Source: Poseidonia sp. (GTDB lineage Archaea; Thermoplasmatota; Poseidoniia; Poseidoniales; Poseidoniaceae). Taken from it: a DNA stretch of 64,000 nucleotides. The stretch spans positions 51,932-115,931 of the forward strand of contig JASLVM010000002.1 in the NCBI GenBank assembly GCA_030741355.1. Direction: 5' to 3'. Positions 45,301-47,079 of the stretch are shown here, in pieces. The notes under the pieces were generated by a model. The model worked only from the letters and a program-made list of their open reading frames with translations, was not told the DNA's origin and did no database searches. The first letter of the stretch is position 1; each line of letters opens with the position of its first letter. A program made the position numbers and the translations under genes.

Positions 45301-45514
45301 CAATCGTATCATCCAGTTCAGCTACGGTGAAGACGGCATTGACCCGTCCCGTGGTGTCCACGGCTCCCCGTTCAACATCGACGTCATCGTCGACGCTGCT
45401 TTGGGAACAGAAGGTGGACTTGAAGTGGAGCGAGAATCCTATGAATTCAAGGCCGATGAAGAAGACATGGGCGCATGGGAAGAAGCCGCCGAACACGATG
45501 GAGGTGAGGACTGA
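42332..45514 (+). CDS. rpoA1: RNA polymerase subunit A' (Rpo1N) with a large internal insertion
   Basis: Motifs seen: the N-terminal zinc sites, [12 protein letters not shown], and [12 protein letters not shown] (the catalytic DFDGD). The 1060-aa length exceeds the ~880-900 aa typical of archaeal A'. Confidence 0.95.
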
Positions 45515-47079
45515 TGGTCGTTAAGAGTGCAACCAAGAAGAAGCTCATGGACTTGGGCATTGAAGAAAACTTTGCTCACGCACTGGCTGACGACCGCAAG
45601 TGGGACGACGTCAAGGTGATGTCACAAGCTGACATCGCCAAAATCTGTGAAACCGACTCGGAGACCGCTGGAAACATTCACGCCACCATCATCGCCGCCA
45701 CCCAAAAGGGTCGCGATGGCGACGGTGAGAACACCGGGCCGGTCACCAAGGTTCGCATTTCTGGCCGAAGCTCAAAGCGTCGAACCCGTGCCAAGGCCGT
45801 TGTTGGCCTCGAACCGTACGATTACGAACGTAAGATGCAGTCAATGGTCAACGAGTTGTCGTTGGACCCGGTCTACAAGAAATTGGAGGAAGCCGTGGAC
45901 GCCACCGGATCAGGTCGTTTCACCAATCGTATTCTGGCTGATTTGACCGTTGCTTGCCACAGCCGTGGCAAGAAGAAGTTGACCAAGCCACAAGCCAAGA
46001 AGGTCATTGACGAAGCCATCGTTGCTCTGGAACGAGCCAGCATTGACCCCTACGAAGCAGCAGGTATCATCACGGCACAGTCCATCGGTGAACCAGGTAC
46101 ACAGATGACCATGCGTACGTTCCACTATGCTGGTGTCGCAACCGTCAACGTCACGCAAGGTCTTCCACGTATCATTGAGATTGTGGACGCCCGCAAGGTG
46201 CCACAAACACCGACGATGACCATCCGTTTGAAGGACGACCAAAAGCAAGATGGCAAGGCTGCACAGAAACTCGCAGCTGCGATTGAAGTCACCACCACGG
46301 TGAACATCGCCACGCTCGAAACCGACGTCGCCCAACGCCGACTTGTGTTGAACCTCAACAAAGGCAACCTCAAGCAAAAGAACATGACCGCTGCTGAGGT
46401 CAAGGACAAACTTGAGCGTGCAACACGGCTCTACGTTCAGGCTGATAAGGAAAAGAACCCGTCAACGCTCACCATGATCCCTGGCGTTCATGCAGAAGAA
46501 GACCTCGCTGACCTCGCCGATAACCCACCATCGTACACGATGCTCCTCCAACTGGAAGAGAAGATTCGTGACATGCGACTGAAGGGTATTCCTGGCATCG
46601 AGCGAGCCAACCCGCAACTTGACGACAAAACGGGCGAGTACTACCTTTCCACCATCGGAAGCAACCTCACTCGAATCAGTGAACTTGAGAACATTGACCG
46701 TTCCCGGACCTACACCAACAACATCATCGAAATCTACGACTACTTGGGCATTGAAGCCGCACGTCAAGCCATCGTCAACGAACTCCAAATGACCCTCGAC
46801 GGCGCCCGCCTCGAAGTTGATGTCCGCCACCTGCTGATGGTCGCTGACGTCATGACGTCTGAAGGAGAAGTTCGAGCCATTGGCCGACACGGTGTTTCTG
46901 GAACCAAACACAGCATCCTTGCTCGTGCTGCGTTCGAAGTCACCGTCAACCACCTGCTCAAGGCCGGTATCATCGGTGAGAAGGACTACCTCACCGGTGT
47001 GGCAGAGAACATCATCGTCGGTCAGCCCATTTCCTTGGGAACCGGCAGCGTGGCTCTGTACTACATCCCGGATGAGTGA
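45514..47079 (+). CDS. rpoA2: RNA polymerase subunit A'' (Rpo1C) with a ~105-aa N-terminal extension
   Basis: [27 protein letters not shown] and [12 protein letters not shown] are present. The 521-aa length exceeds the ~390 aa typical of A''. The first ~100 aa are homologous to the RpoH N-terminus. Confidence 0.9.

Follow-up and report, generated by a model that had tools for sequence, protein, structure and literature searches.

An N-terminal helix-hairpin-helix-fold appendage on RNA polymerase subunit RpoA'' of Thermoplasmatota, with a paralogous copy on RpoH in Poseidoniales

The DNA analysed here (hereafter the window, the whole stretch of 64,000 nucleotides) comes from the Poseidoniales, or Marine Group II (here Marine Group IIa), a lineage of Thermoplasmatota that is among the most abundant archaea in the ocean. 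The forward strand of the window carries the operon rpoH-rpoB-rpoA'-rpoA''-rpl30e, in which open reading frame order places rpoA'' directly after rpoA', and the stop codon of the one overlaps the start codon of the other in the sequence TGATG, which indicates translational coupling. A tRNA-Lys(UUU) gene (window 37933–38008) lies 46 nt upstream of rpoH, and Marine Group IIb loci show the same arrangement, with tRNA-like translated frames upstream of rpoH. After rpl30e, a surface-type repeat protein of 1160 aa (window 47424–50958) stands in place of nusA-rps12-rps7. The features of the two subunits discussed here are as follows, with the evidence for each in brackets.

38055–38705, forward strand: RpoH open reading frame, 216 aa
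38055–38246, forward strand: RpoH residues 1–64, paralogous module, specific to Poseidoniales (BLASTP, tree, phylum-wide PF01191 scan)
38247–38354, forward strand: RpoH residues 65–100, basic linker, net charge +6, stopping where the HELVPH motif starts (charge, comparison with Marine Group III)
38355–38705, forward strand: RpoH core (Rpb5 C-terminal domain) with apparent lineage-specific insertions (PF01191 matches residues 145–212 only)
45512–45516, forward strand: TGATG, the rpoA' stop and rpoA'' start sharing one base (read from the sequence)
45514–47079, forward strand: RpoA'' open reading frame, 521 aa
45514–45705, forward strand: RpoA'' residues 1–64, module with predicted five-helix (HhH)2 fold and invariant N-terminal peptide (AlphaFold2, Foldseek, dN/dS)
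45706–45846, forward strand: RpoA'' residues 65–111, basic low-complexity linker (charge, indels between orthologues, dN/dS)
45847–47079, forward strand: canonical RpoA''/Rpo1C core, including the trigger-loop block (Pfam PF04998, PDB chain matches)

Seven archaeal A'' sequences from the PDB matched RpoA'' in phmmer searches (E-values 1e-81 to 1e-84) and, because query residue 124 pairs with residue 13 of Sulfolobus A'' (E~1e-84), the canonical subunit starts at about residue 112, leaving some 111 extra residues ahead of it. The Pfam match to RNA_pol_Rpb1_5 (PF04998; E = 2.9e-50) begins at residue 96, and the conserved block GEPGTQMT, described in the original prediction as displaced, is indeed shifted by about 111 residues towards the C-terminus relative to solved A'' chains. 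The N-terminal appendage is genuine: the first ~333 nt of rpoA'' code for a 64-residue domain and a linker of about 47 residues, after which a normal A'' follows; the extension of about 105 aa first read at 45514–45828 was therefore essentially right, its end now being placed at about 45846. The linker has a net charge of +6 here and from +2 to +11 in orthologues, where it is 40–49 aa long and subject to indels; judging from its composition, it is probably a disordered, flexible tether.

Several observations show that the appendage is real and translated. Most of 79 related loci have an A'' frame that opens just two or three codons before MVVK, reading xL-MVVK with a leucine codon ahead of the ATG, so the TGATG overlap is conserved. 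The frame of the extension is free of stops, its first 16 residues are invariant across two families, and public gene calls place the RpoA'' start at the same site. Estimates of dN/dS by the Nei-Gojobori method (0.12 for the module, 0.27 for the linker and 0.07 for the core of RpoA''; 0.08, 0.11 and 0.10, respectively, for RpoH) are those of modules under purifying selection. An artefact of annotation, with the real RpoA'' beginning at Met108 or Met111 and the upstream frame untranslated or a remnant, would gain from the fact that both methionines sit exactly where canonical A'' begins; however, Met108 is kept in only 45 of 97 orthologues and Met111 in only 20, the frame bears the marks of selection just described and homologous A'' extensions occur across the phylum. 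Given the start overlap, the frame opening, the dN/dS values, the turnover of the two methionines and the public starts, a downstream start—an alternative that had been raised together with the claim of an extension—is very unlikely, and we consider an artefact of this kind scarcely credible.

RpoH begins with a copy of the same module. The N-termini of RpoA'' and RpoH align with 36% identity over 115 aa (BLASTP, E = 7e-18), and Smith-Waterman alignment of residues 1–64 against 2,000 shuffles gave z = 23, or z = 14.7 when the identical first 10 residues were left out. The shuffle test that the original prediction had put forward thus bears out its claim that the two extensions are paralogous, and two different subunits of one enzyme do bear the module, both copies being under purifying selection. 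The two linkers are weakly alike (z = 2.9). A further claim, that similarity continues past the linker (RFNALNHEL versus KMQSMVNEL), has to be given up: this resemblance is a matter of chance (z = 1.5, not significant), the stretch in RpoH being its canonical start motif, HxLVPxH, by comparison with the short RpoH of Marine Group III (..W.HHLVPKH..), and the stretch in A'' being the canonical A'' N-terminus, by phmmer against PDB sequences. The same kind of search of PDB sequences with RpoH gave no match.

The RpoH core is itself expanded (~116 aa compared with ~80 in relatives), and PF01191 covers only profile positions 29–73 in RpoH of Marine Group IIa. This pattern suggests added segments behind the HELVPH motif and close to the C-terminus.

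The genome from which the window derives holds exactly two copies of the module, one on A'' and one on H, and nearly all the sampled Poseidoniales genomes, from three families, also had both, a single copy being seen only in two genomes that are 70–92% complete. A profile recheck of 14 genomes gave two copies in each. Apparent third copies in some host genomes were dismissed as chance hits, the profile recheck giving exactly two. Sequence searches of the other order of the class yielded no significant module match, only three weak hits with E-values of 0.03–0.18. In a maximum-likelihood tree of 54 genome pairs, all A'' copies separated from all H copies in two clean clades with 100/99 support, which points to one old duplication and disposes of gene conversion between the copies, the possibility for which a phylogeny of the module alone had originally been proposed. 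Within Poseidoniales, the A'' and H modules are 47–55% identical. Selection for two copies per enzyme, suggested from the outset, is plausible, since other lineages bear two or three modules in tandem on A''.

Additions to A'' extend well beyond the Poseidoniales. Among 111 Thermoplasmatota genomes, the open frame of RpoA'' varies between 357 and 970 aa, and N-terminal additions were present in most of the 16 A'' sequences that were read from this set, including that of Methanomethylophilus alvi (485 aa, WP_015505505.1), which, like others, begins MAKKDTINAL. We define the Thermoplasmatota RpoA'' N-terminal module class here by a helical domain of ~60 aa before a linker, together with the pattern M-x-x-K-x-(A/D)-T-x-x-x-L-x-x-x-G/D-h-x-E-x-x-A, which the Poseidoniales module fits from residue 1–2. 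When a profile of nine A'' N-termini from outside the Poseidoniales (M. alvi, Marine Group III and others) was compared with the Poseidoniales module using hhalign, the two aligned from residue 2 (columns 2–65 versus 1–58) with a probability of 88% and P = 3.3e-6; Marine Group III alone gave P = 1.3e-3. Identity between the Poseidoniales module and these outgroups in the hhalign alignments is 14–23%.

Marine Group III, the sister order, has a canonical RpoH of ~80 aa but an N-terminal A'' extension of ~370 aa (loci L122–L125), for which AlphaFold2 predicts a five-helix module at residues 1–65, then a beta-rich domain and another helical module. In Foldseek searches the middle domain matched the EVE/ASCH fold (THYN1 5j3e, E = 4e-3; ZmASCH) and the helical parts resembled the (HhH)2 domains of the NusA acidic repeats (AR). 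Similar beta-rich, EVE/ASCH-like domains occur in other Thermoplasmatota A'' extensions (L136, L139, L140 and L148). As EVE/ASCH is a fold that reads modified bases, its junction to an RNA polymerase subunit in Marine Group III seems worth a study of its own.

Some lineages carry tandem canonical HhH repeats on A'' (Pfam HHH_5, E = 1e-33), which are repeats other than the N-terminal module, and the A'' extension at L138 reached 26.5 bits for RNA_pol_A_CTD (PF03118), above the cut-off of 23.8. In L138, L142, L143, L144, L145, L146 and L149, A'' opens with a Lys-rich tail, after which come two or three canonical HhH repeats. In L141 (genome G224, family f15), the N-terminal tail of A'' is extremely rich in Lys, MAKKSKKTKKSTSKK, and the core is followed by roughly 470 additional residues.

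The direction of the duplication follows from these distributions. In a phylum-wide scan with PF01191, RpoH open frames measured 201–252 aa in 19/19 Poseidoniales genomes and 76–151 aa elsewhere, with two exceptions of 160 and 181 aa. Because A'' modules occur throughout the phylum and long RpoH only in Poseidoniales, the A'' copy is the ancestral one and the H copy a Poseidoniales innovation, which reverses the order in which the original prediction had placed them, with the A'' copy as the second. The H copy appears to derive from that on A'', since the two are far closer to each other (47–55% identity) than to the outgroups (14–23%); as judged from sequence comparison, the module and basic linker were most likely duplicated from A'' to H in the Poseidoniales stem, so that RNA polymerases of this order bear two paralogous tethered modules.

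An AlphaFold2 model of the module, built on an alignment of 19 sequences (pLDDT 86), contains five helices (residues 6–13, 18–24, 30–34, 38–45 and 49–63) that fit (HhH)2, that is, two helix-hairpin-helix units and a connector helix. When this model was searched with Foldseek against the PDB, the top matches were all (HhH)2 domains, with TM-scores of 0.72–0.77 and rmsd of 1.6–2.1 Å. The E-values are weak (0.3–2), as a domain of only ~60 residues would lead one to expect, and the assignment is therefore one of fold. Among the matches were 4bxo_A (FANCM/FAAP24, TM 0.75 at 1.7 Å), the C-terminal acidic repeats of NusA (1wcl), the N-terminal domains of RadA/RAD51 and the HhH of Hef, the PDB entries matched including 2zuc and 1x2i. 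The predicted structure thus shows the module to have an (HhH)2 fold. Neither the module nor its 19 relatives matched any Pfam HhH family, even at E ≤ 10; weak matches of the module and relatives to Sigma70_r4_2 and WYL_3 were set aside as noise, leaving no credible family.

The first hairpin of the module is LGIEE, with a single glycine, which is invariant; the second reads ETDSE in this genus and (C/L)GI(D/S) in the RpoH copies and in A'' of Marine Group IIb. Such degenerate hairpins look more like those of the protein-binding NusA AR repeats than like the classical DNA-binding GhG hairpin. In the window, both modules have a net charge of −3 and both linkers one of +6; among orthologues, the linkers are always positive (median +5 for A'' and +6 for H) and the module is mostly negative (median −2).

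The module also occurs in proteins other than polymerase subunits. Searched with its profile, a set of 1.84 billion representative proteins gave 204 hits, of which the best 150 comprised 21 A''-like proteins, 13 H-like proteins and 116 that resemble A'' or H in the module alone. Assembly fragments (frameshifted or adapter-chimeric) make up many of these 116, and at least 57 are genuine other proteins; in nearly all genuine carriers the module sits at the extreme N-terminus. They include several real families of 150–340 aa and one of 1292 aa, in which the sequence past the module is unrelated between families and has no Pfam match. The A''-type profile HMM scored higher than the H-type in 49 of the 57 non-polymerase carriers, and the N-terminal peptide MVVKSATKK is invariant in host and mobile copies alike. 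One carrier, P0094 (L134), is an 851-aa AAA_15/AAA_21 ATPase with C2H2 zinc fingers and an internal H-type module at residues 93–144; it resembles a defence-type ATPase.

The contigs that encode these carriers are marine and dense in co-directional orphan genes, and the neighbouring genes encode a Mom-like protein, ERCC4, PCNA, ribonucleotide reductase, a thymidylate-synthase-like protein and a DUF3846 protein (P0067 and P0094 were left out of this comparison of contexts, their flanks being too short). From these gene neighbours we infer that the carriers reside on virus-like mobile elements; host genomes lack them and contain the module exactly twice. A scan of IMG/VR with the module profile gave no confirmed match, a tblastn search of INPHARED gave no match and Foldseek against BFVD returned nothing specific, so the carriers are tied to no named virus group. 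The sequences suggest that the A''-type module has been exchanged between the host and virus-like mobile elements, in which it forms the N-terminus of many unrelated orphan proteins.

Exchange of this kind might have run from virus to host, the MVVKSATKK-type module being of mobile origin, replacing an ancestral A'' module and being added to RpoH. The diversity of the mobile-element copies would fit such a history, as would the distance of the Poseidoniales module from that of Marine Group III (about 14–23% identity) when A'' and H copies are 47–55% identical. However, its position, its start at residue 2 and its helix pattern are those of other Thermoplasmatota A'' modules, vertical descent with fast divergence is simpler and so short a module holds little phylogenetic signal; we therefore regard a mobile origin as improbable.

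What the appended modules might do is best considered from their place on the enzyme. H and the A'' jaw form the lower jaw near the downstream DNA, and H is needed for open-complex formation (PMC2847245). On the N-terminal side of Rpo5, Sulfolobales have Rpo13, whose basic tail lies in the DNA entry channel, and in eukaryotes the same locus is filled by the Rpb5 jaw (PMC2675907, PMC13257274). Tethers of 36–47 residues would give the A'' and H modules freedom to move about the DNA entry channel, where basic tethers and HhH modules could together hold the downstream duplex non-specifically and so stabilise open and early elongation complexes; the modules might also offer a docking surface for partners. 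The arms would then play a role akin to that of Rpo13, of the eukaryotic Rpb5 jaw or of two tethered bacterial alpha-CTDs. Our preferred explanation as a whole—an appendage with the history given above, acting as jaw arms that hold DNA, serve for docking or do both—seems to us slightly likelier to be right than wrong.

Two readings of the arms have to be weighed within this explanation. For the holding of DNA, which is compatible with docking, we put the chances at about even: the linkers are always net positive, and DNA binding can be taken as the ancestral role because classical Lys-rich HHH_5 arrays occupy the same position on A'' in related lineages, but the acidic module (−3 here, median −2), its degenerate hairpins and its lack of a Pfam HhH match count against it, and the strict conservation of MVVKSATKK in host and mobile copies goes beyond what non-specific DNA binding explains. 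The modules might instead be tags for protein docking, A'' and H pairing with each other or with a host factor, and the mobile carriers docking on, or competing for, the transcription machinery. Heterodimerisation is known for the (HhH)2 domains of XPF-ERCC1 and FANCM-FAAP24, and the best structural matches of the module include FANCM/FAAP24 as well as the NusA AR repeats; a module of net negative charge with acidic, degenerate hairpins would also suit such a role. So would the carriers: 116 of the best 150 among 204 proteins are unlike A'' or H beyond the module, nearly all of the at least 57 genuine ones bear it N-terminally, 49 of 57 are A''-type, they occur on contigs with Mom-like, PCNA, ribonucleotide reductase and thymidylate synthase genes and not in host genomes, and they share with the host copies an invariant, disordered N-terminal peptide. 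Yet viral proteins often pair a conserved DNA-binding domain at the N-terminus with a variable C-terminus, which makes the carrier pattern compatible with both readings, and the classical HHH_5 repeats and Lys-rich tails on A'' of related lineages speak for ancestral DNA binding; docking as the main role is thus possible but doubtful.

A bolder proposal, which we hold to be rather unlikely, is that Thermoplasmatota polymerases have independently evolved a tethered HhH landing pad for regulators at the downstream-DNA jaw, similar to the alpha-CTD, which was split over A'' and H in Poseidoniales and is exploited by viruses or mobile elements. If it were true, a module of ~45 residues on dozens of unrelated mobile effectors would let them ride on, or take over, the host polymerase.

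The common picture of archaeal RNA polymerase is that of a conserved core of 11–13 subunits, with additions such as Rpo13 treated as rare. In a paper of 2014, archaeal RpoH is without any N-terminal extension (PMC3906176), and a full-text search of the literature found no description of the A'' and RpoH extensions. The fold and the existence of lineage-specific polymerase add-ons were known already; what appears to be new is that the module is fused to A'' throughout a phylum, that RpoH bears a second copy and that mobile elements share it. RNA polymerases across this phylum, those of cultivable methanogens such as Methanomethylophilus alvi among them, bear tethered HhH modules on A'', to which some lineages add EVE/ASCH domains, and one of the most abundant ocean archaea has a second copy on RpoH, with what seem to be virus-like elements of the host using the same module. 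This provides a testable handle on how transcription may be anchored, regulated or hijacked in the uncultured archaea of Marine Group II.

Several known systems invite comparison. The NusA acidic repeats AR1/AR2, FANCM-FAAP24, XPF/Hef and the N-terminal domains of RadA/RAD51 have the five-helix (HhH)2 fold in common with the modelled module (TM 0.64–0.77), and the NusA repeats are, like it, acidic and play a role in transcription complexes; all of these, however, are different proteins with no detectable sequence homology to the module, and none is fused to an archaeal RNA polymerase subunit. Rpo13 of Sulfolobales is likewise a small, helical, lineage-specific add-on with a highly basic flexible tail and a proposed contact with downstream DNA (PMC2675907), but it is a separate helix-turn-helix subunit in another phylum, whereas the arms are (HhH)2 domains fused to A'' and H; no Rpo13 chain was among the best 50 matches when the module was compared with the PDB using Foldseek. 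The eukaryotic Rpb5 jaw, which contacts downstream DNA and regulators including viral HBx (PMC2847245, PMC13257274, PMC3906176), resembles the RpoH arm in being appended to the N-terminus of the RpoH orthologue at the lower jaw, but has another fold, is rigidly packed rather than tethered, shows no homology and bears on the RpoH copy, not on that of A''. In the bacterial alpha-CTD (PF03118), HhH-type domains are again held on flexible linkers, two per enzyme, and bind both DNA and transcription factors; unlike the arms, it is basic, C-terminal on an alpha/Rpo3-type subunit and present as two identical copies, and as the module of the window has no Pfam match to PF03118, the likeness is one of analogy. 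The tethered arms of A'' and RpoH may thus be seen as a natural counterpart both to the bacterial alpha-CTD and to engineered HhH-polymerase fusions.
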